Shown in pieces: positions 8,122-22,248 of a DNA stretch of 41,093 nt. The notes below the pieces were generated by a model. That model saw nothing but the letters and a program-made list of their open reading frames with translations, had not been told where the DNA came from and did not search any database. Location of the stretch: the NCBI GenBank assembly GCA_001595885.1, contig LSSH01000085.1:1-41093 (forward strand), written 5' to 3'. The DNA is from Candidatus Proteinoplasmatales archaeon SG8-5 (GTDB lineage Archaea > Thermoplasmatota > Thermoplasmata > SG8-5). Within the stretch, counting starts at the first letter, position 1. Each line of letters begins with the position of its first letter. The position numbers and the translations under genes are program-made.

Positions 8122-9012
8122 ATGGAGAAGATAAACGAGTTCGGGAGCTTTGCCGAGACCATCAGCGCCCTGGGTACACTTACGAAGCTCGAATCTGCCG
8201 TCGATGCGGCCGTCAAGAACTCAAAGGTCCCGGCCAGAGAGACGCGGAAGTTCCTCAAGTGCATGACCGTCGAGGAGGCCGGCAACACCGCACTGTTCCA
8301 GTTCATCAGGGAGCTGTTCGTGCGGGTGGGCCTGGGTCAGATGAAGCTGACGAGGAACGACATCTTCAGGTATGACATCGCCATCAATGAAAATCCCGTG
8401 GCCAAGCTGTATCCCAATGTCACCAACAAGAAGACGTGCTACATCACGGCCGAATCAATAATGGAGTTCTTCGCCAAGGACCTGGGGTTGCCCGGGAACT
8501 GCGAGGAGACGGCGTGCGTCAACGCGGGTGATGACCGTTGCGAGTTCTCGATATCTTTACAGCCGCTGGCCGTTTACCAGCTGGCCCTGGATGCCTCGGA
8601 CAAGGAGATAATAATGGCCATCATGGACGGCTCGACCGTTCAGAGCATCGCGACGAAGCTGGACATGAGCGACGAGGAGGCCCAGTACAGGCTGAGCGTG
8701 CTTAAGAGGTATCACATCCTCGATGAAAACTTTGCTATAACCGAGATCGGGGACACCTACCATAAATACGGGGAAGGAATGCCCATTCAGGAGGACGATT
8801 TCCCTCCGCCATGGAAAGATATGGCCGAGATATCGGGAGCCATATCGGCGTCGACCTCGTTCGCCGAGGCCTTCACAGAAACGGCTAAGGAGGAACCGTT
8901 GTGGGACGTGAACGAGGATGACATCGTGAACCTGGCCGACGAGGCTAAGAAAAGCACCAGCTTTGCTGAATTACTTTCAAAACAAATTAAGAACAAGGAA
9001 AAGGACGATTGA
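8122..9012 (+). CDS. V4R-domain protein with a C-terminal HTH and acidic tail
   Basis: GLGQM..., CYITAESIMEFF, CEETACVNAGDDRCEF (V4R signature), then IATKLDMSDEEAQYRLSVLKRYHIL. Confidence 0.8.
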   Translation: MEKINEFGSFAETISALGTLTKLESAVDAAVKNSKVPARETRKFLKCMTVEEAGNTALFQFIRELFVRVGLGQMKLTRNDIFRYDIAINENPVAKLYPNVTNKKTCYITAESIMEFFAKDLGLPGNCEETACVNAGDDRCEFSISLQPLAVYQLALDASDKEIIMAIMDGSTVQSIATKLDMSDEEAQYRLSVLKRYHILDENFAITEIGDTYHKYGEGMPIQEDDFPPPWKDMAEISGAISASTSFAEAFTETAKEEPLWDVNEDDIVNLADEAKKSTSFAELLSKQIKNKEKDD

Positions 9013-9026
9013 ACGGAGGAATGAGA

Positions 9027-9902
9027 ATGGAAAGAATTAAGACGGGAATATATGGGTTGGATCAACTCATTGAAGGTGGACTGAGAGACAACACGGCCAT
9101 TGTGGTTGTAGGTTCCAGTGGTACAGGAAAGACCACTTTTGGGATGCAGTTCCTAATGCACGGCATTGAGAACGGCGAGCAGGGTCTCTACGTTACCATG
9201 GAGGAATCCCCAGAACAACTCATGAAAGAAGCGGAGATGCTTGGATGGGATATGAAGAAGCACTATGAAAAATCCCTCTTCTTCATCCACCTCAAGGGGA
9301 AGAATTTCAAGAAGATGATCGACGAGCAGATCCCGCAACTGGTCAAGGCCAGGAGCGATTACGACATCAAGACACGAGTGGTGATTGACCCAATGACACC
9401 TGTCATCTGGGCGACTGAAGATAAACTTCATCAGAGAGAGCTCATCGGTAAGCTGTTCTACACTCTGAAGGAACTTGGTGTTGTCATGGCCACCGTGGAG
9501 GAGCATTCCAAGCCGGGCGAGATAGTCGGCGAGGATGTACTGCTTCCCGTCTACCTGGCCGACGGCGTCATTGACCTCGAGTACTACCCGATCGGCGGGG
9601 CTTTCAACCGTACCCTCAAGATCATCAAGATGAGGGGGACGCACCACGGCGAGGGAGTGTACCCTTACATATTTGCCAGGGGCATCGGCATAGTGATAAG
9701 GACCTCCCAGGTCGAGGCGGTAAAGGTCGAGGAGGGAAAGAACTTCGATTCCATCTTCGACGAGGCGATAAAAACTGCCGAGTTCATCAAGGCACCCGAT
9801 TACATAATCACCAAACTGAAGAACATGAAGGAAGGCTGGACATACAACTATTCCCCAGAAGAGGCCTTACAGGTGATATTCGACTCCTATGGTTTGAAGT
9901 AA
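9027..9902 (+). CDS. Single-domain KaiC/RAD55-family RecA-fold ATPase
   Basis: RIKTGIYGLDQLIEGG, Walker A GSSGTGKT, YVTMEESPE, RVVIDP, YLADGVI, RTLKIIKMRG. RBS GGAGG at 9015; alternative start at 9021. Confidence 0.93.
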   Translation: MERIKTGIYGLDQLIEGGLRDNTAIVVVGSSGTGKTTFGMQFLMHGIENGEQGLYVTMEESPEQLMKEAEMLGWDMKKHYEKSLFFIHLKGKNFKKMIDEQIPQLVKARSDYDIKTRVVIDPMTPVIWATEDKLHQRELIGKLFYTLKELGVVMATVEEHSKPGEIVGEDVLLPVYLADGVIDLEYYPIGGAFNRTLKIIKMRGTHHGEGVYPYIFARGIGIVIRTSQVEAVKVEEGKNFDSIFDEAIKTAEFIKAPDYIITKLKNMKEGWTYNYSPEEALQVIFDSYGLK

Positions 9903-9917
9903 GGTCGGAGGACTTGG

Positions 9918-10709
9918 ATGGCAAGCGACAAGAAGATAGACAAGCGAATGGAGGCCGAGACGGTCGTACAGTTAAAGCACATGCTGGAGATGGAGCTGAA
10001 GAGGATCCAGGAGACCAACAAGGTCGACATCATCATGTTCGTCGGTATTGACGGGCGCATATTCAGTTCTCTGATACCGCAGCTACTGGACGGCACGCAG
10101 TTCCGACTTCTGAACCTTGTCAAAGGTAACCTTCCTTCCATCTGCAGCCAACTGACGGCCGAGAACCTGGAGATCAGCATCCATAAGTACAAGGACGGCA
10201 CCGTGGTCATCTCCGGTGTCGGGGACAACTGCTTCCTGGTCTCGATATTCACAAAGGAAGTGGATATCAAGGAGCTTCAACCGGTGGTGACCGGTATTAC
10301 CAAGGGCAGCGCCGTGCTGAATCACCTCTTCGAGCTCAAGCCCATAACCCCCGAGGCAATGCAGGGGTATGACGATGAAGTAATCGAGGAGCTGTCGAAG
10401 CTTACGAGGCTGCTCTTCGTGGAGAAGTTTGACGAGACAAGGGAGTACAAGCGAAACATGGAGCTGCTCAAGTTCATGAAGAACAAGATAGGCAGCGTGG
10501 TGGGCATCGGTGCGGTTGACGAGATAGTCACGGTCACGATGAACGAGCTCGGTACTTCGGCCCCTTACATGAAGGAAAAGGACTGGATCAAGTTCACAGA
10601 GATGATAATCGACACCCATATCAAGAAGGCCAGCGGTGACATTGTCGCCGATGAGTGCAGGAAGACATGGATACCAGAGATAGAACGCAAACTCAAATCC
10701 TTCGTTTGA
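9918..10709 (+). CDS. Roadblock/LC7 (MglB-like) domain protein with an extra C-terminal helical domain
   Basis: ELKRIQETNKVDIIMFVGIDGRIFSS...LEISIHKYKDGTVVISGVGDNCFLVSI is the Roadblock alpha-beta pattern. Confidence 0.75.
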   Translation: MASDKKIDKRMEAETVVQLKHMLEMELKRIQETNKVDIIMFVGIDGRIFSSLIPQLLDGTQFRLLNLVKGNLPSICSQLTAENLEISIHKYKDGTVVISGVGDNCFLVSIFTKEVDIKELQPVVTGITKGSAVLNHLFELKPITPEAMQGYDDEVIEELSKLTRLLFVEKFDETREYKRNMELLKFMKNKIGSVVGIGAVDEIVTVTMNELGTSAPYMKEKDWIKFTEMIIDTHIKKASGDIVADECRKTWIPEIERKLKSFV

Positions 10710-10718
10710 TAAACAGGG

Positions 10719-13559
10719 ATGGGAAGAATGGCAAAGGCGAAGAAGACGACGAGGAAGAGCACGACTTCTAAAACTAGTAAGCCAAAGGCCTCGACAAAGA
10801 AGAAGTCGCTTGCCAAGAAGACCCCCAAAAAGACTGAAAAGAAGACCGATAAGAAGCCGGAGCTCATTTGCCAGTTTTGCGAAAAACCCATGAAGGACGA
10901 GAAGACGAAGAAGGTCCACGAAAGTAATTGTAAGAAGAAGAAGGAAGAGAAGGAGAAGAAGCCGCCCAAGAAGGATCTGGAGGAGGCCGTTGCGAAGTTA
11001 AAGGACGAGTTCGAGGACCAGAAGAGAGTATTCAGCGACCGCTTCACCGAGCGGGAGGACAGGCTCCACGAGGAGATACGCGAGCTCAAGGAAGTGCTCA
11101 GGCTGGAGATAGAGCACCGCCACAAGGAGCGGGAGCGGCGGAAGCGGGAGGAGTCGGAGACCGCGGCGGCGGAGGCCGTGCTGGAAGAGGTCGCGGAGGC
11201 GATTGATAAGGAGATGGAGACCTCGGAGGAGACCGCCCGGGAACCGGAGCCATCACCGATACCGGTTGCCCAACCACCAACCCAGATACCGGCCGAAGAC
11301 GCTCCAAGGGCCATTGACATGATTCCGACGCCTGTGCCCGAGATTCCGCCGCCGAAATCCCCCGAGCAGATTGCACCTGGAATCGGCGCAGCTTCGCCTG
11401 AAGAGGTTACGGTTGAAACGGCGGAGATCCCCCCCTCGGAATCGAAGGAGGTCGCAGCCGAGGAACCCGCTGTTCAGCCAGAGGCGGAATCCGAGCCCAA
11501 GATCGACATGGACAGGGAGGCCATCGTCACGCTTATCCGTGAGGAATTGGGGAAAAAGGACGAAGAGAAGGCCGGTCCCGTTATCGAACTGGACGGGATC
11601 ACCGGACAGATCGATGACCTTTCAACGGAGGTCAAGACGCTCAAGAGAGACCTGGAGACAACTTCCTCAAATCTCAGGAAAACGCTGGACAAGATTGAGT
11701 ATGACGCTGAATTCAAGAGAATCGAGCGCGAGCTCAACAAGTTCTCGGAGAAGATAGCCGAGATTATGGACGAGATCGGGTTCGGCGAGCAACTGAACGT
11801 TTCAAAGATACCGCCGACCATCCTGGAGATAGTCTATCAGGCCACGCTGGACGACCTGACTCTCGAGCTGGCCCGGGCGATGGGCACCCAGGATGCGGAA
11901 AAGGTCTCAAGGGCTGCTTTGGAGGAGGTAAGGTTGAAGACGAGCGGCAGCGAGCTCTTCAAGTTCGACGGGCGCAAGATCGTTACCGATAATCTTGCCC
12001 ATTCCATAGAGGCCAACCTCATCTCGGCAAAGCAGATACAGACCACCTACGACGAATTGCTCAGCCGGCTGCTCGAGAATCTCCCCCATCACAAGGCAAA
12101 GAACTTCAGGGCAATGATCAAGGTGAAGAGCCAGGAGTTCGCAGTTGACAGGGCGACAATGCTGACGAAGCACACGGACCGACTTGAGAACGTGCTCGAG
12201 ACCTCCAGCCAGATGCTGGCGGCCTTGTCAGCGCAGCTGAACTCGCTTCAGCTGGAGCTCAGGGAGGAACTTGACGACATCAAGAACAACATGATATTGA
12301 CCAAGGCCGAGGCCTCTGATATCGACCTCATCAAAATCAAGATGAACGAGAGGGACGAGAGGGAGGCAAAGCTCATGAAAGACCTCTCATTGTTGAGGGC
12401 CGAGGTGGAGATGGGAAAGAAGCTGGCAAAGAAGGATGAGAAACCGAAGATGGAATTGGGGGCGGAAGTGAAACCAACCGAGGATAAGCCCGCCAAGAAG
12501 GAGGAAGAGGTTAAGGAGGAGCCGCCGAAGGATGAGGCCGAAACATCCACGCTTGAGGCCGATGTCTTAAAGGCCATCTCCGACGGAGCTGGTTCAAAGA
12601 CGGCCATCAAGAAGAGCACCGGTCTGAAGGAGAAGGAGATTCTTGAGGCTGTTTCAAAACTCGTAAAGGACAAGAGAATCATCGAGAAGAAAGCTGGAAA
12701 GAGGATATCCTACATGACGCCGGATAAAGAACTTGAGGATAAGATCAAGAAGAAGGAGAAACCAAAGGAAGAGAAAAAACCTGAGGTCCCGGAAGTTATT
12801 GAAGGTGAGGATATCATTGTTGTGCCGGAGGGACCTCCGGAGGAAGAGCCCAAAACAAAGAAAGGGCCCAAAAAGAAGGCCGGGGACAAAATGGCAATGG
12901 AAGAGCCTGAGAAGAAGCCCAAGAAGGCTCCGAAGAAAGAGCCTGAAAAGAAAGAAGAGAAGACGCCGCCCAAGAAGGCTCCGAAGAAAGAACCTAAAAA
13001 GAAGGAAGAGAAGAAACCTGAAAAGAAAGCTGAAGATGAGAAGAAGGCACCTTCTGAGAAGGCGAAGGAAAAGATTGAAGAGAAAGCGCCCAAAAAGGAG
13101 GCTGAAGAAGAACCTAAACCCGAGAAAGAGAAGCCAGAGCCTGAAAAGCCGGTCGAGGAAATGGAGCCCGAGGTGTCAAAGGAGCCAGAAGAGCCCGTGG
13201 AACCGAAGGAACCAGATCCGGAAAAGGCCCCTGATAAGAAACCAAAGAAGGAGCCCGAAAAGGAACCTGAAGAGCCCGAGATATCCATACCGACTGAGTC
13301 CAAGGGTCTCGACGAATTAAGCGAGGAAGAGAGAATGGTCCTGGAGGCCATCACGGAGGATGGTCTTACCAGGTCGGGGATCCAATCCAAGGTCGGCAAG
13401 GACCTGAACTACACCACCGTGCTCAGGGCGCTGCGGGTGCTCATCGATTCGGGCTACGTGGGTATCGTTACGAAGGGCAGGCTCACCCTTTATCAGAAAA
13501 TCAGTGTCAAAGAAATGGATAAACCTGAAAAGGAGAAGAACAAAAAGGAGGTGAAATGA
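10719..13559 (+). CDS. Large K/E/P-rich coiled-coil protein with an N-terminal C2HC Zn finger and two winged-helix domains
   Basis: Lys-rich N-tail, CQFC-x12-H-x3-C, heptad coiled coils flanking a globular core, and wHTHs at VLKAISDGAGSKTAIKKSTGL...VSKLVKDKRI and VLEAITEDGLTRSGIQSKVG...LRVLIDSGYV. Alternative start at 10728. Confidence 0.75.
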   Translation: MGRMAKAKKTTRKSTTSKTSKPKASTKKKSLAKKTPKKTEKKTDKKPELICQFCEKPMKDEKTKKVHESNCKKKKEEKEKKPPKKDLEEAVAKLKDEFEDQKRVFSDRFTEREDRLHEEIRELKEVLRLEIEHRHKERERRKREESETAAAEAVLEEVAEAIDKEMETSEETAREPEPSPIPVAQPPTQIPAEDAPRAIDMIPTPVPEIPPPKSPEQIAPGIGAASPEEVTVETAEIPPSESKEVAAEEPAVQPEAESEPKIDMDREAIVTLIREELGKKDEEKAGPVIELDGITGQIDDLSTEVKTLKRDLETTSSNLRKTLDKIEYDAEFKRIERELNKFSEKIAEIMDEIGFGEQLNVSKIPPTILEIVYQATLDDLTLELARAMGTQDAEKVSRAALEEVRLKTSGSELFKFDGRKIVTDNLAHSIEANLISAKQIQTTYDELLSRLLENLPHHKAKNFRAMIKVKSQEFAVDRATMLTKHTDRLENVLETSSQMLAALSAQLNSLQLELREELDDIKNNMILTKAEASDIDLIKIKMNERDEREAKLMKDLSLLRAEVEMGKKLAKKDEKPKMELGAEVKPTEDKPAKKEEEVKEEPPKDEAETSTLEADVLKAISDGAGSKTAIKKSTGLKEKEILEAVSKLVKDKRIIEKKAGKRISYMTPDKELEDKIKKKEKPKEEKKPEVPEVIEGEDIIVVPEGPPEEEPKTKKGPKKKAGDKMAMEEPEKKPKKAPKKEPEKKEEKTPPKKAPKKEPKKKEEKKPEKKAEDEKKAPSEKAKEKIEEKAPKKEAEEEPKPEKEKPEPEKPVEEMEPEVSKEPEEPVEPKEPDPEKAPDKKPKKEPEKEPEEPEISIPTESKGLDELSEEERMVLEAITEDGLTRSGIQSKVGKDLNYTTVLRALRVLIDSGYVGIVTKGRLTLYQKISVKEMDKPEKEKNKKEVK
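12918..13019 (+). repeat. 51-bp in-frame tandem duplication (PKKAPKKEPxKKEEKxP x2)
   Basis: cccaagaaggctccgaagaaaga... starts at 12918 and again at 12969. Confidence 0.8.
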
Positions 13560-13560
13560 A

Positions 13561-14193
13561 ATGCTCGATGTAGCATTGGTCTCGCTTATCCAAGACATGA
13601 GCGAGAAGGCTGGTGTCGAGGGCACCATCCAATACTGGGCTAGAGTGGGTGAAAGCCTGGCCAAGAGAATGGGCAAGGAAGCGTATATGGGTTGGCCGTC
13701 CTTCAACGTCGCGTTGAGGGAGGGTCGAACAGCGTTTTCCATAGAGGGAAGCGTCACTGCCTTGACCGACCTGGCCATAACAGACGTGGACGGCGACGTT
13801 GTCGGTTACATCTACGCGTTGGAGACCTGTGTCTTCAACCCGACTATCGTGCGGATACGATACAGCGTCGGCGAGTTGCCGAGGGCAGATAGTGCCGTCG
13901 CAGAGGAATACAACAACAGCGTCAGGGACACGGCGGTCTGCAACTTCTGCGTGATACACCAGAGGTTCAGGGAGGAGGTGGCAAAGAACATCTCCATCGC
14001 CGACCAGGCGTTGGACTGCGTGCAGCTGGCCAACAGGGGCTTCACAGGTGACACGAAGATCGCTGAGGATGCCCTTAAGAAGATAGGCATCAACCCCGAG
14101 TACGTCCGCAGTCTGTTGAGGAACTACGCATGTGTCTACGCCATCCTGATGAGGGGCGCAAGACTCAAGGGCGAGGAAGAGGAGGCAGAGTAG
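13561..14193 (+). CDS. Hypothetical V4R/MetOD1-like Cys/His protein (paralog A)
   Basis: YWARVGESLAKRM, ETCVFNP, CNFCVIHQRFREEVA; RBS GGAGGTGA upstream. Confidence 0.55.
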   Translation: MLDVALVSLIQDMSEKAGVEGTIQYWARVGESLAKRMGKEAYMGWPSFNVALREGRTAFSIEGSVTALTDLAITDVDGDVVGYIYALETCVFNPTIVRIRYSVGELPRADSAVAEEYNNSVRDTAVCNFCVIHQRFREEVAKNISIADQALDCVQLANRGFTGDTKIAEDALKKIGINPEYVRSLLRNYACVYAILMRGARLKGEEEEAE

Positions 14194-14205: not shown

Positions 14206-14820
14206 ATGGGAGAAAGGAGAAAAGGTTTGATAGCAGACAACCCGTTCGTTGACGTTGCCGCCTGCCTGTTCCTCGAGGACATCGCAGACAAGCAAGGAGC
14301 CAGCGGGATGAACAACTATCTTGTCAGCCTTGCGACGTCCCTCGCCAAGAGCATGCCCGAAGAGGAGTACGCCACATGGGACGACTTCCTCGACTCGTTG
14401 GTAAAGGGCGAGTCCATCATATCCGCGTTCGAGGATGTGATTACCGTCACGCCGCACTGCGCGGTCACGACCGAGTGCCCGTTCACAAAGGGCTGGCTCG
14501 AATACACCAAGAGGATCGGAACGTTCTCGAAGATACATACGGACGTGGCCGAGTATTATAACTCCGTATACAAGCCCGGCACGATCAACTCAATGTGTAT
14601 CATCCACCAGACCTTCAGGAACGCGGCGGCCGAGAGGATCAAGATCGCAGGCAAGATCCTGAAGATATCCCAGGTCGCGGCTGTCTGGGAGGACGGGACC
14701 AGGAAGATAGCGCCGGACGAGTGGGTGCCCATATTGCTGGAGAAGGCTCAGATAACCGGGACAGACCTGAACATGATATTGAGGAACAACGCAGACGTCT
14801 GGGTGATGTACACAGAGTGA
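14206..14820 (+). CDS. Hypothetical V4R/MetOD1-like Cys/His protein (paralog B)
   Basis: YLVSLATSLAKSM, TECPFTK, SMCIIHQTFRNAAA; RBS GGAGGTGA upstream. Confidence 0.55.
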   Translation: MGERRKGLIADNPFVDVAACLFLEDIADKQGASGMNNYLVSLATSLAKSMPEEEYATWDDFLDSLVKGESIISAFEDVITVTPHCAVTTECPFTKGWLEYTKRIGTFSKIHTDVAEYYNSVYKPGTINSMCIIHQTFRNAAAERIKIAGKILKISQVAAVWEDGTRKIAPDEWVPILLEKAQITGTDLNMILRNNADVWVMYTE

Positions 14821-14985: not shown

Positions 14986-15543
14986 GTGATCGAGCTGGCA
15001 AGGAGCGGTGACCTCATATTCTACAAGTTTGAGGAACCTTCTGAGATAAACAAGTTCCATATACTCGGTTCCGAAGACGGGAGGTTCTCCGGTGGGGGTT
15101 TCGAGTTCTTCCGAGGTCTGGGCATCATCGGATACGACAAGACCTTCAAGATATGGCTCAGGAAGTTCCCGAGACCCATCTTCATCGTGGCTGCCAAGGG
15201 CAATCACATTTACTCTTGGGTGTTCATCGAGGAATGGTTAGAGGAAGCTTCGGTCGACGGGATGGCCGTTTGGGTTCTCAGGGCGATAGAGACGCTTCCG
15301 TCGGAACGGAGGAAGAAGATAGGGTTCAGGCTCGTTGTCCTAGGGGCAAAGCAGAGCACCGGTTACCTTATCACCAAACCGTTGACGCCGGAGGCCGAGA
15401 GGTTCTTCAGGATGTGCGGGTTCATGTCCCCGAAAGAGTTCAAGAAACCGCCCATCGACTTCACGCGGCATCCTGGCCACTTGATACTTCCGCCGTACAA
15501 AAAGGAGCAGCTGATCGAGCAGGTTGATGATTATTTTAAATAA
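14986..15543 (+). CDS. GNAT-fold acetyltransferase-like protein
   Basis: LRAIETLPSERRKKIGFRL (motif A-like) and PEAERFFRMCGF (motif B). GTG start after AGGTGA. Confidence 0.7.
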   Translation: MIELARSGDLIFYKFEEPSEINKFHILGSEDGRFSGGGFEFFRGLGIIGYDKTFKIWLRKFPRPIFIVAAKGNHIYSWVFIEEWLEEASVDGMAVWVLRAIETLPSERRKKIGFRLVVLGAKQSTGYLITKPLTPEAERFFRMCGFMSPKEFKKPPIDFTRHPGHLILPPYKKEQLIEQVDDYFK

Positions 15544-15549
15544 GAAAAG

Positions 15550-15572
15550 ACCAGTGGCGCGTGGCCACTGGT
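15550..15572 (-). terminator. Hairpin terminator between convergent genes
   Basis: 9-bp stem ACCAGTGGC/GCCACTGGT with a 5-nt loop, followed on the minus strand by CTTTTCTT. Confidence 0.6.
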
Positions 15573-15580
15573 GTGGGGAC

Positions 15581-16480
15581 TCAAAAGAGGGAGAGTATCT
15601 CATTGCCGAACTGCTCGGCCTTGGTCTCTCCGATGCCGTAGATGGACTGCAGGTCCTCTACCGATGCTGGGTCCTTGCTTGCTAGTTCCCTCAGTGTCCG
15701 GTTCTGAAGCACGAAATACTTGGGCTTGCCCATCTCCTCCGACTTCTTGTCCCTCCACTCCTGCAGCAGGCCCTTGCGCCTCTCGACCTCCTCGATCTCC
15801 AGGTTGGACTCGACCTCCACTGGGAGGTCGTCACCGCCGGCCAGGACGTCCAGGCCCTTGCTCGTGATGACGAGCACCGGGAACTCGGATTCCTCCGCGT
15901 AGGCGATGTAGTTCTCCTCGATGAGCCAGTCTATGAGCGCGAGCACCTCCTTCATGGATGCGCCCTTGGCTACGCCGTACTGGCCCAGCTTGCCGATGTT
16001 TATGGTCAAGACCTTCTTCGACACGGAGCCCGTTAACACGCGGGCTATTGTGGTGCGACCGTAGGTCCCGCCCATGTCGAACACGCATTTCAACACAGAG
16101 AGCGCTAGGCTTGAGGTCTCGGTCTCGGCGGGAACGCCCTGCAGGGCGATGACCTCCGTGAAGGCCATTGTCAGCTGCTGTCCGTTCTCGGTAGTGGCGA
16201 ACACCTCGATGTCCGCGTCCACGACGTTGCGGGCGAGGCTGATCTCCGCCCCGCTGTCTATGTAGCATATCGGGCGGACGCCAGCGCACAGGTTGTGCAC
16301 GACAACCGCGCCGTCGGGCCTGGCGGTCATCAGGACCTTTCCGTCGAATTCCTTCGTAACGGCCTCGTTGACGTACGTGCCCCGGCACTGGCCGACCACG
16401 ATGATGGTCTGGAGGTTGGTCATTTCGTTCGTTTGGCTTTGCATATCGTTTGTTTCGTTTTGGTTCATTTTTTCAACCAT
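15581..16480 (-). CDS. Fusion of a NucS/EndoMS N-terminal-like domain with RecQ RQC and HRDC domains, with no catalytic domain
   Basis: IIVVGQCRGTY...VLMTARPDGAVVVH...VRPICY (NucS-N like); YGRTTIARVLTGS...LIDWLIEENYI...PVLVITSKG (RQC); LQEWRDKKSEEMGKPKYFVLQNRTLRELA..P...LQSIYGIGETKAEQFGNEIL (HRDC). Start at 16480 or 16468. Confidence 0.8.
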   Translation of the reverse strand: MVEKMNQNETNDMQSQTNEMTNLQTIIVVGQCRGTYVNEAVTKEFDGKVLMTARPDGAVVVHNLCAGVRPICYIDSGAEISLARNVVDADIEVFATTENGQQLTMAFTEVIALQGVPAETETSSLALSVLKCVFDMGGTYGRTTIARVLTGSVSKKVLTINIGKLGQYGVAKGASMKEVLALIDWLIEENYIAYAEESEFPVLVITSKGLDVLAGGDDLPVEVESNLEIEEVERRKGLLQEWRDKKSEEMGKPKYFVLQNRTLRELASKDPASVEDLQSIYGIGETKAEQFGNEILSLF

Positions 16481-16482
16481 CC

Positions 16483-16548
16483 TGCCTTCTTCGGAAGGCA
16501 ACGGCTTCGGGCATTCGGGTGTATGCCCCGAATGCCTCACTACGAAGC
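16483..16548 (-). promoter_or_regulatory. Structured 5' leader with two hairpins
   Basis: TGCCTTC-TTCG-GAAGGCA (16483-16500); GGCATTCGGG/CCCGAATGCC (16510-16536) enclosed by GCTTCG/CGAAGC (16504-16548). Confidence 0.55.
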
Positions 16549-16641
16549 AATTGTAACAATGTTAGGTTAGTATTTATTAACCATATAGTACTCTTAACGT
16601 ACAAGTAACAAAGTTATATATGCGAAGCCTTTCAGCGACCA

Positions 16642-17736
16642 ATGGCGCGCACCAACGTAACACAGGAGACACGGGACCGAGGCTCCTCCAAGGCACGCAT
16701 CAACATGACGCACGGGGCCGGGGGCGAGGCCATGCAGAAATTGCTGGCCGAGGTCATCCTATCCCGGCTTGAAGACAACAGGCCAGAGATTGGCCTTAAA
16801 GAGCTGGACGACTCCGGCGTCATGGACGACATCGTTCTCACCATGGACGGTCATACGGTGAACCCGCTGTTCTATCCTGGCGGAGACATAGGGAAGCTGG
16901 CCGTCTGTGGCACGATAAACGACATCTGCGCGATGGGCGCGGAGCCGGTCGCCCTCGCCCTCGGCCTTATCATGGAGGACGGCCTAGAGATGGACGATAT
17001 CTCAAGAATCATGGAGAGCATCGGCCTGACCTGTAAGGAATCGGGTGTACCCGTCATCACCGGAGATACGAAGGTTGTAGAGAAAGGCGCAATCGACAAG
17101 TTAATGGTAACAACCTCAGGCATAGGAAGGATGGGCGGGTGCCTGAAGAAAAACAACTCAGTTTTGCAGGAAAGAACAAGCCGCCAGCAGAAGTGGCTCC
17201 AGGACTGCAATCTCAAAGTCGGGGACGACGTCATCGTCACCGGCAGCCTCGGCGACCACGGCATCTCACTCATGAGCTTCAGGGAAGGTTATGGGTTCGA
17301 AACGACCCTGCAAAGTGACAACGCGCCGCTGAACAAGCTGATGGCCGAAGCCCTGAGCATCGGCGGCATCGTCTCGGCAAAGGATCCCACCAGGGGAGGT
17401 CTGGCCAACTCGCTGAACGAGTGGTCGTCCAAGTCCGGCGTGGGCATCCTCGTGAAGGAGGACGAATTGCCCATCAACCAGCAGGTGAGGAGCGCGTCAG
17501 AGCTCCTCGGAATCGACCCGCTCGAGGTGGGCAACGAGGGCAAGATGGTCATCGGCGTCATTCCTGAGATGACGGAGGAGGTCCTCGCAATAATTCGGCA
17601 GAACGAACACGGAAGGGACGCCAGGGTCATCGGCAAGGCCACTGATGAGGTGAAGCGCGTCGTGCTGGAGACCGTTGTCGGGGGCAAGAGGATCATCGAG
17701 GCACCGGTCGGGGACCCGGTGCCGAGGATTTGTTAG
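16642..17736 (+). CDS. hypE: Hydrogenase maturation protein HypE
   Basis: HGAGG, GDIGKLAVCGTINDI, GDTKVVEKG, DPTRGGL, C-terminal PRIC. Confidence 0.97.
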   Translation: MARTNVTQETRDRGSSKARINMTHGAGGEAMQKLLAEVILSRLEDNRPEIGLKELDDSGVMDDIVLTMDGHTVNPLFYPGGDIGKLAVCGTINDICAMGAEPVALALGLIMEDGLEMDDISRIMESIGLTCKESGVPVITGDTKVVEKGAIDKLMVTTSGIGRMGGCLKKNNSVLQERTSRQQKWLQDCNLKVGDDVIVTGSLGDHGISLMSFREGYGFETTLQSDNAPLNKLMAEALSIGGIVSAKDPTRGGLANSLNEWSSKSGVGILVKEDELPINQQVRSASELLGIDPLEVGNEGKMVIGVIPEMTEEVLAIIRQNEHGRDARVIGKATDEVKRVVLETVVGGKRIIEAPVGDPVPRIC

Positions 17737-17739
17737 GTT

Positions 17740-18816
17740 TTATTGACGCTGATATTTGAATGCAATAGTGCACCCGCCCTCGTGGCTAACCATGCAGGGG
17801 CCTACCGGGCTCGAGGGGGTGCAGGCCTTGGCGAATAGTGGACAATCCGTCGGCTCCAGTTCTCCCCGGAGCACGTCGCCGCACTTGCATCCGGGCGGCT
17901 CCTCGAACTCCTTCTGCCAGACCGGTTCCAGTATGTCCCTGTATCGTAGACGGGCGTCCAATTGCTCGTATTCATTTCTGATTTTGAGGCCGGTGCCAGG
18001 CAGCACCGGGAAGCCGCGCCATTTCACGTCGCAGGGTTCGAAGACCCTCCTCATCGCTTCCTGGGCTTTCAGGTTGCCCTCGTATGTGACGGCACGCTCG
18101 TACGCGTTGTCCACCTTGGCCTCGCCGTTCTTTATCTGGTGGGCCACCATGTAGATGCCCATGAGGAAGTCGAGGGGCTCGAATCCGGCCACAACCTGCG
18201 GGATACCGTGATCCTTGGACAAGAATTCGTACATCTTCCAGCCTGTGATGACGCTCACATGCCCGGGCTCGATGAGGCCGTTCAGCTCGACCTTCCCTGA
18301 CTCGACAAGGATGCGGAGTGCGTTGGGAATCGTGCGGTGACAGCTGAGCACCGAGAAATTCCCTGGGGGTTGTGCCAGCAGGACAGCGGCAGTGCTGGGG
18401 GCCGTGGTCTCGAAGCCCACTGCGATGAACACAACCTCTTTATCGGTTTGGTCGGCCAGTTCCACGGCATCGGCAATGCTGTAAACGAGCCGGACGTCAG
18501 CGCCCTCGGACTTCGCCGTGAGGAGCGAGCCGGTCTCGCTGGGCACCTTGAGGAGGTCACCGAATATTGCCACCGTCTTACCTGCCCTGGCAAGTGCGAG
18601 AGCCTCTTCTATCTCCTTGGGGGTGGTAACGCAGACCGGGCAGCCCGGTCCCTGGCGCACGTTGACCCCGACGTCTTCTAGCATCTCCTGGAGACCATAG
18701 CGGACGAGTGTGTCCTGGTGGGTGCCGCACACGTGCATGAGCTTGATGTTCAGGTCCATGGAACGCAGTTTGTCAATGATCTTGGCGGCCATCTCCCTGT
18801 CGCGAAACTCGAACAT
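17740..18816 (-). CDS. hypD: Hydrogenase maturation protein HypD
   Basis: HVCGTH, GPGCPVC, GFETT, PGHVS, GFEP, GPCMVSHEGGC. Confidence 0.97.
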   Translation of the reverse strand: MFEFRDREMAAKIIDKLRSMDLNIKLMHVCGTHQDTLVRYGLQEMLEDVGVNVRQGPGCPVCVTTPKEIEEALALARAGKTVAIFGDLLKVPSETGSLLTAKSEGADVRLVYSIADAVELADQTDKEVVFIAVGFETTAPSTAAVLLAQPPGNFSVLSCHRTIPNALRILVESGKVELNGLIEPGHVSVITGWKMYEFLSKDHGIPQVVAGFEPLDFLMGIYMVAHQIKNGEAKVDNAYERAVTYEGNLKAQEAMRRVFEPCDVKWRGFPVLPGTGLKIRNEYEQLDARLRYRDILEPVWQKEFEEPPGCKCGDVLRGELEPTDCPLFAKACTPSSPVGPCMVSHEGGCTIAFKYQRQ

Positions 18817-19202
18817 CACTCATCCTCCAGGTCCAGGACCAGGTTCCTGACGACGCATTCCTTTCCGTGAAGCACGTCTATCGGGCCGTTGCATTCGGGG
18901 CATGAGAACTGCGGTATAGCGATGTGGTACTCTTCGGTCTCCCCAGCCTTCATGGCGCCCTCGTAATCGCATCTCCGGCATTTCACCTTTGCCTGGATCG
19001 GTATAATGGTCAGGGCGTCGTCCTTGATGTCCGGCTCGTTTTCCACGAGGGCTCTGAAGCCGAATCGGAGCGCATCGTGCGAGAGGAAGCTTAGCTCGCC
19101 CACTTCGAGGACTATCTCCTTGACGAAGTTGAGGTTGTCGTGCTTGCCCATCTCACCTTTCACAAGTTCGACTATCGATGAGATCACAGAGAATTCGTGC
19201 AC
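18816..19202 (-). CDS. hypA: Hydrogenase nickel chaperone HypA
   Basis: MHEFS N-terminus (GTG start), CRRC and CPEC Zn motifs, GKE. Confidence 0.95.
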   Translation of the reverse strand: MHEFSVISSIVELVKGEMGKHDNLNFVKEIVLEVGELSFLSHDALRFGFRALVENEPDIKDDALTIIPIQAKVKCRRCDYEGAMKAGETEEYHIAIPQFSCPECNGPIDVLHGKECVVRNLVLDLEDE

Positions 19203-19426
19203 TATGCGTCCTCCATCTCAAGCATCTCCTCCCACACCGCGAGCGTTTGCTTGGCATCGGCCTCGCTCATCACCTTGATGGCAAAGCCAGCGTGGACGAG
19301 AACGTAATCGCCGAGATTCACGTCAACCATTGAGACGTTCGCCTTGTTGACGACCCCTTCCCCGTACTCCACGTTGGCGACGTCGCCATTGATCTCGATG
19401 ATCTTACCGGGTATTGCCAGACAGAT
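19202..19426 (-). CDS. hypC: Hydrogenase maturation chaperone HypC with an apparent ATC start codon
   Basis: Manual translation: (I/M)CLAIPGKIIEINGDVANVEYGEGVVNKANVSMVDVNLGDYVLVHAGFAIKVMSEADAKQTLAVWEEMLEMEDA*. Not in the ORF track. Confidence 0.92.
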   Translation of the reverse strand: MCLAIPGKIIEINGDVANVEYGEGVVNKANVSMVDVNLGDYVLVHAGFAIKVMSEADAKQTLAVWEEMLEMEDA

Positions 19427-21586
19427 TTAACCGCCCCCTACCAGTTGCCCGAAACTTATTCCTCCGTCACCGTTGGGCACGCGCCTGTGGGTTATGAGCT
19501 TTGCCCCTCTTTCCTTCAATTTCCTCTCCAATATGCTGGTTATCACCAGGTTGTAGGACACGCCGCCGGTGAACCCGAGTGCTTGGCTCGGTTCAGCCGC
19601 TTCGACCAGTCCTTCGAACAATGCCTCGACAAAGCTTCTGGAGAGGTCGCAGGCTCTCTGGTTATCAGGTTTCTCACCAGGTGCGGTGTGTTCATACAGC
19701 TGGCCGAACAGCGCTGGTGTGTCCACAACACCCCCGTCGACTTCGGCATTGAACCTGTATTCATTGCGGCCTCTTCGGAGGAATGACTCGAGCTTCATTG
19801 CCGGTTCGCCGTCGTATGTCATGCTCTCGCAGACTCCGAGCCAGCAGGCCAGGGCATCGAGCACCCGGCCGCAGCTGCTCGTGTGCACGCTCTTTTCCAT
19901 CATCAAGGCCAGCACTTGCTCCTCCTGGCCCGTGAAGTACGGTTGGTCTACATCAAGCTGCTGGGTAACGGCGAATACGAGGCGTCTGGGGTCCTCAACA
20001 GCCTTGTCACCCCCCAGTAACGGGAAGTATTTAAGGTGGCCCAGGCGCCGCCACTGGTCCCTGTTCACCTCTATGGCCTCGCCGCCCCATATCATACCGT
20101 CCGTTCCGTAGCCGGTGCCGTCGCAGGACAGGACCTTGAGGTCGTCCATTCCGTGCTCGCCGGCCAACGAGAAGGCGTGGGCCGCGTGATGCTGGACCTC
20201 TGCCATGGGAATGCCCATCTCCTCGGCCATCCGCTTGCCCAGGCTGCGGCTCGAATACCTTGGATGCATGTCCACGAGCACCGCGTCGGGTTTGGTGATA
20301 CCGTAGAGCTTCATCAGGTGCCTTACAGAGCCTTCAAGGAACTCGGTGGTCTCATAGATGTTGACGTCCCCGATGTGCTGGGTGGCAATGGCCTTGCCGG
20401 CGATGGATATGGCGCCGGCATTGTTCATGTCCGCGCCCAGGGCGATGAGCGTCCTGTCGTGGGGAACTGGCAGAGGATCAGGAACGTATCCGCGGGATTT
20501 GCGTATGAAGAATTGGGAGCCGTTGTGCGGGATGACCACAGAATCGTCGGTGCGGTTGATTATCTCACGGTTGTGGACAAGATAGCAGTCCACGCTGAGG
20601 TCCAGGGCGCCCTCGTCGGTGATGACCATGGGCTCTCCCGGGACGTTGCCGGACGTCATTATCAGGGCGTCGTGGTCCAGCTCCCCAAAGAGCATGTGCT
20701 GCAGAGCGTTGTAGGGCAGGTAAAGACCGACCTTGTCGAGCCCCGGGGCGACCGCGTCCTGCCAATCATCCCCGGACTTGTCCAGTAACACGATCGGCCT
20801 GGCAGGAGAGGTCAAAAGTCTCTCCTCCTCGAATGAGACCTTTGCGTATTTCCTTGCCGCCTCCACGTCTGATACAATAACTGCCAGGGGTTTCTGCGGG
20901 CGGCCATACCGCTTTCTCAATTCGTCCGAGTATGAGGGTAATGAAACGATGTGAATCCCGCCCCAACTCTTTATTGCACCTATCGAGCCGCGCTCTATCA
21001 TTGCGGCGAAGTCCTTGATTGGTGTATTGGTCTCAGAACCATGTAGAGAATAGTTGGGTCCGCATTTGGGGCAAGAAACGGTCTGTGCATGGAAGCGGCG
21101 GTCCATCGGTTCCGTGTACTCGGAATCGCACCCCGCGCACAGCTGGAAGGGCTCCATGGACGTCTTCGCCCTGTCGTAGGGCACGTCGGAGATGACGGAA
21201 AACCTGGCTCCGCAATTGGTGCAGTTGATGAAGGGGAATGAATAACGCCGGTCGCCGGGAACGACCAGTTCTTTCAGGCAATCGTCGCAGATGGCCGCGT
21301 CCGGCGGTATGGGGGAGAGACGCTGGCCGGCACCGCTTTGGATGATCCGGAAGTCATCGGCATCGGTATCTTCCGAAAAGACGTCAAAGCCGTCTATCCT
21401 GGCAAGCGGGGGCAAGGCCTTGGTCAGGGCCTCCATGAATTCTTTGTCGTGACCGTCAAGGCATATCTCCACATCGGAACCCGTGTTCTTGACATGGCCC
21501 TTCAGGCCCATATTCCTGGCGACCCTGTAAACGGTCGGGCGGAAGCCCACTCCCTGTACGACCCCCCTGATTACTATCCTGACCAT
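19427..21586 (-). CDS. hypF: Carbamoyltransferase HypF
   Basis: GVVQGVGFRP acylphosphatase domain, CxxC-x18-CxxC Zn fingers, QHHAAH, DGTGYG, PNGDGGISFGQ. Confidence 0.97.
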   Translation of the reverse strand: MVRIVIRGVVQGVGFRPTVYRVARNMGLKGHVKNTGSDVEICLDGHDKEFMEALTKALPPLARIDGFDVFSEDTDADDFRIIQSGAGQRLSPIPPDAAICDDCLKELVVPGDRRYSFPFINCTNCGARFSVISDVPYDRAKTSMEPFQLCAGCDSEYTEPMDRRFHAQTVSCPKCGPNYSLHGSETNTPIKDFAAMIERGSIGAIKSWGGIHIVSLPSYSDELRKRYGRPQKPLAVIVSDVEAARKYAKVSFEEERLLTSPARPIVLLDKSGDDWQDAVAPGLDKVGLYLPYNALQHMLFGELDHDALIMTSGNVPGEPMVITDEGALDLSVDCYLVHNREIINRTDDSVVIPHNGSQFFIRKSRGYVPDPLPVPHDRTLIALGADMNNAGAISIAGKAIATQHIGDVNIYETTEFLEGSVRHLMKLYGITKPDAVLVDMHPRYSSRSLGKRMAEEMGIPMAEVQHHAAHAFSLAGEHGMDDLKVLSCDGTGYGTDGMIWGGEAIEVNRDQWRRLGHLKYFPLLGGDKAVEDPRRLVFAVTQQLDVDQPYFTGQEEQVLALMMEKSVHTSSCGRVLDALACWLGVCESMTYDGEPAMKLESFLRRGRNEYRFNAEVDGGVVDTPALFGQLYEHTAPGEKPDNQRACDLSRSFVEALFEGLVEAAEPSQALGFTGGVSYNLVITSILERKLKERGAKLITHRRVPNGDGGISFGQLVGGG

Positions 21587-21594
21587 GTACGACC

Positions 21595-22248
21595 TCAGAT
21601 CAAACCTAACTTCTGCAACAGGACGTCCAGGCCCTCGCCCGTCCTCGCGTCGGTGAAGACCACGGGAACGTGCGGATTTATCTCGCCCGCATCCCTCTCC
21701 AAAACGGCCGGGTCAACGCCCATGGCCTCTGCCAACGATATCTTGTTGACCACGATGATGTCTGACGTCCCCATCAATATCGGATGTTTCCTGACCATGT
21801 CGTCGCCCTCCGTGACCGAGACCACCGTGATACGCATGTCGCTGCCCAGCGGGAAATCGGCAGGGCAAACGAGGTTGCCCACGTTCTCTATGAAGAGCAC
21901 ATCGAGACCGGCCAGGTCGAGCTTTTCGAGCGCGTGGTCGACAAGGTGAGCGTCCAGATGGCACTCCTTGCCGGTGTTCACGTTGATGACCGGGATGCCG
22001 TGCCCGCTGAACCTCCGATAATCGTCGTCGCCGGCCACGTCGCCGGCAATAACACCGCATTTCACACCCTTCTCCTTCAGGATGTCAATGAGGCCTTCGA
22101 TAATGAGGGTCTTGCCCGAACCGATGGCTCCCTGGATGTCAAAGCATTTGACGCCGTGCGAGCGCAGGTGCTTGTGATTGTCCTCTGCCAGCTTCCTGTT
22201 CGCTGCGAGTATGTCAGTGCCCAGCTCAACGTCCTGCACAAGATGCAT
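21595..22248 (-). CDS. hypB: Hydrogenase nickel-insertion GTPase HypB
   Basis: GAIGSGKT, ECHLDAH, ENVGNLVCPADFPLG, SVTEGDD, NKI. Own TATA-like AAAACGTTAAATA just upstream. Confidence 0.97.
   Translation of the reverse strand: MHLVQDVELGTDILAANRKLAEDNHKHLRSHGVKCFDIQGAIGSGKTLIIEGLIDILKEKGVKCGVIAGDVAGDDDYRRFSGHGIPVINVNTGKECHLDAHLVDHALEKLDLAGLDVLFIENVGNLVCPADFPLGSDMRITVVSVTEGDDMVRKHPILMGTSDIIVVNKISLAEAMGVDPAVLERDAGEINPHVPVVFTDARTGEGLDVLLQKLGLI

Follow-up and report, generated by a model that had tools for sequence, protein, structure and literature searches.

The window analysed here is a 41,093-nucleotide stretch of DNA, contig LSSH01000085.1 of Candidatus Proteinoplasmatales archaeon SG8-5, and the element under study is a single gene on its minus strand. 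The encoded protein consists of three modules: a head that resembles the N-terminal domain of the mismatch nuclease NucS/EndoMS, an RQC winged-helix domain and an HRDC domain of the RecQ type. It has no detectable catalytic domain. An earlier note on this DNA had proposed such a combination, with neither a helicase nor a PD-(D/E)xK nuclease domain, and the Pfam, NCBIfam and fold comparisons agree with it. Pfam finds RQC (PF09382, residues 121-224) at E 1.6e-16 (60.6 bits, cut-off 23) and HRDC (PF00570, residues 239-297) at E 1.4e-18 (67 bits, cut-off 23.8). The NCBIfam recQ model TIGR01389 runs collinear over residues 120-297 with positions 399-586 of its 591 (E 3.6e-23); the score is 81.9 bits against a cut-off of 640, and the helicase-core part of the profile is unmatched. 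At the other end of the protein, the NCBIfam NucS equivalog PRK04247 covers residues 9-120 with its positions 10-120 (E 8.5e-6), far under the full-length cut-off. DEAD, Helicase_C, RecQ_Zn_bind and NucS_C have no Pfam match in the protein at E <= 1, and residues 119-299, with RQC and HRDC, take the place of the PD-(D/E)xK nuclease domain of NucS. The features of the locus are collected in Table 1.

Table 1. The gene, its domains and control elements, and the neighbouring genes in the window (residue numbers refer to the 299-codon frame)
Feature	Coordinates	Strand	Remarks
Coding sequence	15581..16480	minus	intact frame, 299 codons + TGA stop (15581-15583)
Likely start ATG	16468-16466	minus	Met5 of the 299-residue frame, giving a 295-residue protein
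N-terminal tail, residues 1-23	16412..16480	minus	polar, rich in N/Q/T/E/K; predicted disordered; predicted local distance difference test (pLDDT) <50; orthologue alignment
Head, residues 24-118	16127..16411	minus	all-beta, NucS/EndoMS-N-like, pleckstrin homology (PH)-type domain; profile and fold comparisons
RQC domain, residues 121-224	15809..16120	minus	RecQ-type winged helix; Pfam, model, VIA-align
Linker between RQC and HRDC, residues 216-232	15785..15835	minus	acidic, low confidence; 7 D+E, 0 K+R; composition, model
HRDC domain, residues 239-297	15590..15766	minus	Pfam, PDB match 2rhf
Terminator-like element	15540..15572	minus	palindromic 9-bp hairpin, 6 G-C pairs (15550-15572), then CTTTTCTTAT; between two convergent genes
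Leader inverted repeat	16510..16536	minus	perfect 10-bp repeat, 7-nt spacer; between AT-rich TATA-like boxes (~16570-16620) and the start
hypE-like AIR-synthase-fold protein	16642-17736	plus	hydrogenase-maturation set (16642-22248) flanking the gene
hypD	17740-18819	minus	hydrogenase-maturation set
hypA	18816-19202	minus	hydrogenase-maturation set
hypF	19427-21586	minus	hydrogenase-maturation set
HypB/CobW-type GTPase	21595-22248	minus	hydrogenase-maturation set
V4R-domain protein	8122-9012		block 8122-13559
KaiC-like ATPase	9009-9902		block 8122-13559
263-residue open reading frame	9918-10709		block 8122-13559; no Pfam match
946-residue open reading frame	10719-13559		block 8122-13559; no Pfam match

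The gene is monocistronic, divergent from the hypE-like gene and convergent with an unannotated open reading frame (ORF) of 185 residues. Its G+C content of 0.56-0.57 is that of the surrounding window. The source assembly, with a completeness of 70.5 %, consists of 111 contigs that total 1.25 Mb. Translation probably begins at the ATG at 16468, because a Shine-Dalgarno-like GGTTGA (16478-16473) and four A's precede it, with GGTGA-type boxes at equal distance before the start in orthologues, and because the frame of an orthologue from the same genus (L004) is without any ATG further upstream. The protein would then more likely have 295 residues. In the N-terminal tail the composition is kept among orthologues and the sequence is not.

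The assignment of the head rests on profiles and on fold. A profile built from 16 heads was aligned by hhalign with a profile of 13 NucS proteins from the phylum at a probability of 90.8 % (E 1.2e-6, 87 columns). A Foldseek search of the PDB placed EndoMS (5gke/5gkj) and NucS (2vld) at ranks 1-5 with E values of 1.2e-5 to 6.8e-5, the 5gkj match covering 87 columns with a root-mean-square deviation (rmsd) of 2.1 Å. The earlier note's assignment to NucS_N, for which HHpred and Foldseek had been named as checks, is backed by these two results at the level of profile and fold. VIA-align, which is independent of Foldseek, ranked NucS 2vld_B third among 48,161 chains (Z 11.3, rmsd 2.3 Å over 89 residues, model residues 20-117). 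In the AlphaFold2 model most ten-residue blocks of residues 31-110 have a pLDDT of 78-90, and one is at 66. When the head was isolated, it scored 21.7 bits with NucS_N, for which the cut-off is 23.9. A search of the PDB with the whole-family profile matched only HRDC and RQC chains, and the ESM Atlas gave no usable match to the head. The head is thus a diverged relative of the N-terminal domain of NucS/EndoMS by profile and fold, the sequence evidence alone being thin. Like NucS/EndoMS (2vld, 5gke; PF21003 + PF01939), the protein has an N-terminal all-beta PH-like domain, and the two share the motifs G-x-C-x-x-x-Tyr, (K/R)-P-D-G-x-hydrophobic-x-V-H and P-x-x-aromatic. NucS/EndoMS goes on with a PD-(D/E)xK nuclease domain, which is missing here. 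A predicted homodimer of the head (two copies, 16-head alignment) scored 0.02, which speaks neither for nor against dimerisation.

The nucleotide-binding pocket of EndoMS can be followed into the head. Residues were mapped by chaining the hhalign alignment to an alignment of one NucS protein of the phylum with 5gke, and EndoMS residues are numbered as in T. kodakarensis. Tyr36 corresponds to Tyr41 of EndoMS, Glu39 to Arg44, Pro70 to Pro74, Cys72 to Asn76 and Tyr73 to Trp77, and the segment R-P-D-G-A-V-V-V-H (54-62) corresponds to K-P-D-G-S-F-L-I-H (59-67). The family motif RPDGxVVVH aligns with KPDGTLLVH of NucS. As described in the available part of PMC6829318, the flipped-out mismatched base lies stacked between Tyr41 and Trp77 of EndoMS and is hydrogen-bonded by Asn76 and Trp77, and Arg44 clamps the backbone. 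Conservation was followed in 22 cluster representatives from the head-profile search (E <= 1e-7; 2.5e-44 to 4.8e-8). Position 36 is aromatic in all 22 (19 Tyr, 3 Phe), Pro70 and Tyr73 are both kept in 22 of 22, and Cys72 is kept in 18. No feature of the head domain is more conserved than the aromatic sandwich, and from the full EndoMS set (Tyr41, Asn76 and Trp77 plus Arg44) only this aromatic pair is present.

The modelled middle domain is a winged helix with helices at residues 125-136, 142-150, 162-171 and 176-188 and strands at 192-194 and 203-205. Two elements are conserved in 52 sequences: the loop G151-S-V-S-K-K156, which connects helix two with helix three and is invariant or nearly so, and the pair Phe200-Pro201, which is invariant and lies between the two strands, at the wing position. 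The available text of PMC4212688 describes the alpha2-alpha3 loop of the WRN RQC domain as the main DNA contact and Phe1037 at the wing tip as the residue that pries open the last base pair. Judged by the modelled secondary structure, the GSVSKK loop and Phe200-Pro201 would be placed like these two WRN elements. WRN RQC (3aaf) matches the model in VIA-align with Z 12.0 and an rmsd of 2.2 Å over 95 residues, and D. radiodurans RecQ (4q47) matches with Z 11.3. A phmmer search of the PDB with the RQC segment matched no RecQ.

Among the structure matches of the middle domain are many MarR/PadR-type regulators (Z 8-9.3). The protein could be a transcription factor or nucleoid protein whose winged helix binds an operator or bulk duplex and whose head serves for dimerisation or ligand sensing. 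This is an unlikely explanation, the foremost among the improbable ones. An acidic head without the Arg44 of NucS would fit it, the perfect 10-bp palindrome in the gene's own leader could be an auto-operator, and the gene stands alone, like many regulators. The middle domain, however, is RQC by sequence (E 1.6e-16), with an HRDC domain collinear with the RecQ C-terminus, and the RQC structures lie about 2 Z units above the MarR/PadR-type winged helices, which reach at most 9.3. The recognition helix of RQC does not read DNA in WRN and BLM, according to the same part of PMC4212688. Furthermore, the neighbours differ between the families of the order to which the archaeon belongs, which leaves no conserved target operon, and no regulator among the structure matches pairs its winged helix with HRDC. 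HRDC domains are not known to occur in regulators.

The HRDC domain is the most basic module of the protein, with 12 K+R in residues 233-299. A PDB profile search found it closest to RecQ HRDC domains, that of D. radiodurans (2rhf, E 3.6e-6) and 2ma1 (E 2.1e-4). HRDC domains are also present in RNase D and in Rrp6-type RNA exonucleases, and the rnd (ribonuclease D) model matches this one at E 1.6e-4. A protein that binds RNA, RNA-DNA hybrids or R-loops is therefore a reading to be considered, one that we hold to be somewhat less probable still than a regulator. The acidic surface of the protein, which speaks against plain duplex-DNA coating, would suit it. On the other hand, the closer matches of the HRDC domain are those to RecQ, it is contiguous with RQC as in RecQ, and the only relatives of the head are DNA mismatch nucleases. 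The end of the HRDC domain was also looked at for a PCNA-interacting protein (PIP) box, whose pattern is Q-x-x-L-x-x-F. The C-terminal N-E-I-L-S-L-F was rejected as a candidate; it is the last HRDC helix (285-298), and its aromatic end is lost in families f2-f4. The NucS alignment consensus ends in QKTLxxF, which we take to be a PCNA-binding motif, in a disordered C-terminal tail, and the present protein has no such tail.

The gene is conserved across the order. A database of 90 % clusters contains 83 relatives, of which 36 (the protein itself included), 65-100 % identical, are annotated with RQC as well as HRDC. A whole-genome search of the order found a match in 20 of 22 genomes, among them all seven that are at least 90 % complete; the two without a match are 61 % and 77 % complete. 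Every match in the order is an open frame without internal stops, at identities down to 38 %, and all three domains align throughout the orthologues, down to 36-39 % identity. The Nei-Gojobori ratio of nonsynonymous to synonymous substitution rates (dN/dS) against an orthologue of the same genus is 0.076 overall, and 0.062 for the head, 0.044 for RQC and 0.091 for HRDC; as dS is >1, these are rough, upper-range estimates. This is a real gene under purifying selection, and with 83 homologues and orthologues in 20 of the 22 genomes it is not the unique decayed fragment that the earlier note had allowed for. Loss of both catalytic domains and the existence of relatives without HRDC had left room for a decaying RecQ/NucS remnant or a functionless assembly chimera. 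Such an origin is refuted by the conservation and retains only a minute probability: frames are intact in 20 of the 22 genomes, dN/dS is about 0.08 by the rough estimate above, and all domains are kept at the lowest identities. A public DNA run also contains the same DNA unbroken, although the window may have been derived from that very run. The small-share DNA runs X3-X5 were left out as evidence on habitat. A metatranscriptome run contained one 257-nt contig that covers 16122-16377, in the head-coding part, at about 87 % identity and comes from a relative, with the rest of the gene uncovered. It is at most a weak hint of expression, DNA carry-over being possible.

The head domain is almost confined to one order. 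In a sample of 201 genomes from the class its profile matches 21, and all of these but one (G149) belong to the order; 179 of the genomes sampled are from outside it. Some relatives have the head and RQC without HRDC. P0039, P0043, P0047 and others are 235-272 residues long and end in the first HRDC helix (...WR(N/E)(K/R)KA...TPTF) on long contigs; HRDC may be truncated in some lineages or split into the next ORF. Free-standing heads of 93-135 residues are also found, among them P0089, P0092, P0093, P0095, P0098-P0100 and P0102 (93-134 residues), and the NucS-like head is therefore an autonomous module. The free heads P0100 and P0102 have a helical-looking N-terminal extension of 40 residues. 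In P0082 and P0083 the same RQC stands behind Cys-rich, zinc-ribbon-like N-termini instead of the head, an instance of domain swapping. A fusion of the head with an enzyme was not seen in any longer protein: the 27 longer matches are without exception ordinary RecQ helicases, aligned over RQC and HRDC only (52-61 % of the query, 23-30 % identity).

The repair genes of the order provide the background for this protein. The archaeon's own genome, at its stated completeness, has no NucS_C match and no RecQ-family helicase over the cut-off, and the gene discussed here is its only RQC and its only HRDC. Across the order, NucS_N and recQ_fam each exceed their cut-offs in 0 of 22 genomes. Weak NucS_N matches (E <= 0.01) in seven of the 22 are the orthologues of this very gene. 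NucS_C matches occur in two of the 22 (L027 and L029 in G016, L028 in G004) and are PD-(D/E)xK-like proteins without the NucS head. In a sample of 121 genomes from the phylum, 27 exceed the cut-off of the full-length NucS model, and none of these 27 belongs to the same class. MutS was found in 21 of the order's 22 genomes. The MutS_V match of the archaeon itself is split over two contig ends (C53:6912-7367 and C72:1-84), which is assembly fragmentation and not a broken gene. The lineage thus uses MutS-type mismatch repair and is without both parent enzymes, NucS and RecQ.

The lack of both enzymes removes the idea, put forward in the earlier note, of a dominant modulator of NucS that would poison the nuclease through mixed dimers formed by the shared head. 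In its favour there is only the resemblance in fold between the head and the dimerisation domain of NucS. There is no canonical NucS in the order for it to act upon; the genome of the archaeon itself is 70.5 % complete, but seven relatives are at least 90 % complete. The modulator is largely refuted and can be given next to no probability. A RecQ divided in two, with its helicase half at another locus, was likewise rejected, recQ_fam being over the cut-off in none of the 22 genomes.

The best explanation of these findings is a non-catalytic protein that recognises DNA structure and acts as a binder or adaptor, to which a probability of roughly 55 % is assigned. A DNA-structure sensor or adaptor had been suggested in the earlier note. 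The catalysis-free architecture on which that suggestion was based is real and the suggestion is the most economical reading, but the role itself is inferred, as are DNA binding, the kind of DNA bound and dimerisation. With the aromatics of the EndoMS base sandwich retained, the head would probably hold a nucleotide that is unpaired or flipped out, or else single-stranded DNA, and by analogy with NucS it would probably pair two subunits. The RQC winged helix may grip duplex ends and branch points, as it does in RecQ helicases, and the HRDC tail may serve as an auxiliary module for binding DNA or a partner. Having neither motor nor nuclease, the protein would attach to forks, flaps, junctions, mismatches or distorted sites and either shield them or bring in enzymes that other genes encode, such as a helicase of the Hel308 or Lhr type or the MutS pathway of these archaea.

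Several observations weigh against a DNA-structure binder with a NucS-like head. The Pfam NucS_N match (residues 26-93, E 0.0015) reaches 18.9 bits and lies under the 23.9-bit cut-off, and the N-domains of orthologues do little better: 14 of 16 match NucS_N at E <= 1, the best at 1.9e-4, and none is over the cut-off. The head profile gave three chance matches and no NucS among PDB sequences, and 29 matches at E <= 0.001 and no canonical NucS among 1.84 billion cluster representatives. The whole protein is acidic (isoelectric point, pI, 4.6), as is the head (pI 4.5, 6 K+R versus 11 D+E), and the AlphaFold2 model of the whole protein is moderate, with a mean pLDDT of 69.9 and a predicted template modelling score (pTM) of 0.36. 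No conserved operon partner is found among the families of the order, and no partner or pathway is indicated. The NucS-like reading of mismatches does not appear to be preserved as such, because the position of the clamping Arg44 is occupied by Glu39, which is variable in the family (A, D or E), and because the base-reading Asn76 is replaced by Cys72. By its sequence the head would seem to have kept a pocket for an unstacked nucleotide and to have lost the G/T mismatch specificity of NucS.

The recognition of DNA structure may also be formulated more narrowly, and this form is put forward tentatively, as considerably less probable than the general one. The protein would be an enzyme-free sensor of lesions or structures that combines an extruded-base pocket of the NucS type with the branch-point grip of RQC and HRDC and is probably dimeric. 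It would mark replication and recombination intermediates with unpaired or damaged bases for helicases and nucleases that are encoded separately, and it would have been invented in, and be nearly confined to, one order without NucS and RecQ. It could then be called a 'reader-only' descendant of the two repair enzymes. The confidence not given to any of the explanations above is left to unforeseen roles.

The control elements of the gene bear on its history. The hairpin behind the gene starts 8 nt after the stop codon and is the best terminator-like site in 20 kb; such sites are not enriched there, with 21 versus 16.5 +/- 3.3 in shuffles. A G+C-rich hairpin stands behind the stop in all 18 orthologous loci examined, followed just after by a run of at least four T in about 13 of the 18 (read by eye). 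The hairpin is a native, conserved 3' element of the gene and not a trace of bacterial origin. The earlier note had taken a bacterial-style terminator as a hint of a horizontally assembled gene. Hairpin and T-run are real, but the terminator is not a sign of transfer because orthologues share it, and the G+C content that matches the window and the order-wide inheritance also speak against horizontal assembly. At most, an ancient capture of RQC-HRDC from a RecQ gene is plausible, given that RecQ is lacking in these archaea. The convergent 185-residue ORF has the palindromic terminator in common with this gene.

In the leader, the inverted repeat may be either a 5' leader hairpin or an operator. 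In L006-L011 and L013, from another genus, the stem in the leader is a different one of 7 bp (TGCATCC...GGATGCA) and lies just before the Shine-Dalgarno box (found by eye). It seems that a structured 5' leader or operator is conserved in position and not in sequence.

The neighbourhood of the gene varies from family to family. It is flanked by hypE in f1, by an AMP-dependent ligase and a glycosyltransferase in f4 and by citrate-lyase-type genes in f2 and f3. A Hel308-type helicase lies about 5 kb from the orthologue in four genomes of one genus; it is not conserved and was not used as evidence. In one genome (G002) the gene immediately upstream of the orthologue, in the same orientation, encodes a 1798-residue protein that combines an Lhr-type helicase with an AlkZ-like DNA glycosylase domain (L060 2160-7553), an arrangement that is likewise not conserved. 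Open frames of about 1800 residues with helicase-type matches are present in most genomes of the order. The block at 8122-13559 of the window is found again in two relatives, L064 and L065, with its genes in unchanged order, and the three plus-strand ORFs just downstream of the gene described here (13561-14193, 14206-14820 and 14986-15543; 185-210 residues) have no Pfam match at E <= 0.001. One relative (G014) encodes a Bro-N domain protein about 700 bp from the orthologue (L064 6859-7707). Bro-N domains are typical of viruses and mobile elements.

No paper that describes NucS, RQC and HRDC together was found in the literature searched. Studies done by Castañeda-García et al. in 2017 (PMC5290159) report, in the part of the paper available, that the N-terminal region of NucS is detectable in alternative proteins of Archaea and some Bacteria; these NucS-NT regions outside NucS are among the known systems closest to this protein. 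The supplementary text of that paper, as far as it was accessible, contains no RQC, HRDC or RecQ term, and the architecture may stand unnamed in its picture figures. One paper on Methanomassiliicoccales and RecQ concerns, in the portion available, Lhr and not this architecture. The architecture is new and is built from known domains, helicase-less RQC proteins such as RQC-minor-1 being known already. RQC-minor-1 (NF041107) likewise has an RQC winged helix without a helicase, but its model of 173 positions is without the NucS-like head and without HRDC, both of which are present here. Residues 135-212 match it at E 3e-15 with 56.3 bits against a cut-off of 115, and the protein is not a member of that family. 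With the C-terminus of bacterial RecQ (TIGR01389; 4q47 and 2rhf; also WRN 3aaf) it has in common the order of RQC and HRDC (Z 11.3-12.0), the conserved basic alpha2-alpha3 loop and the aromatic wing residue. RecQ possesses a DEAD/Helicase_C core and a Zn-binding domain, whereas here the NucS-like head replaces the motor, and the nearest RecQ proteins are only 23-30 % identical. It also differs from NucS/EndoMS in being found in an order that has MutS and lacks NucS.

The protein shows that the substrate-reading parts of NucS/EndoMS and RecQ are separable from catalysis and can be joined and selected as an archaeal core gene. It offers a natural separation-of-function variant with which the role of the NucS head alone can be addressed. 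It is of interest mainly to specialists in DNA repair and archaeal genomes. Should the head still hold an extruded base and the RQC domain a branch point, the protein could serve as a compact natural probe for DNA that is branched and distorted at once. It would then also be an entry point to the pathways of repair and replication restart in methanogen-related Thermoplasmatota, whose repair genetics is almost unstudied.

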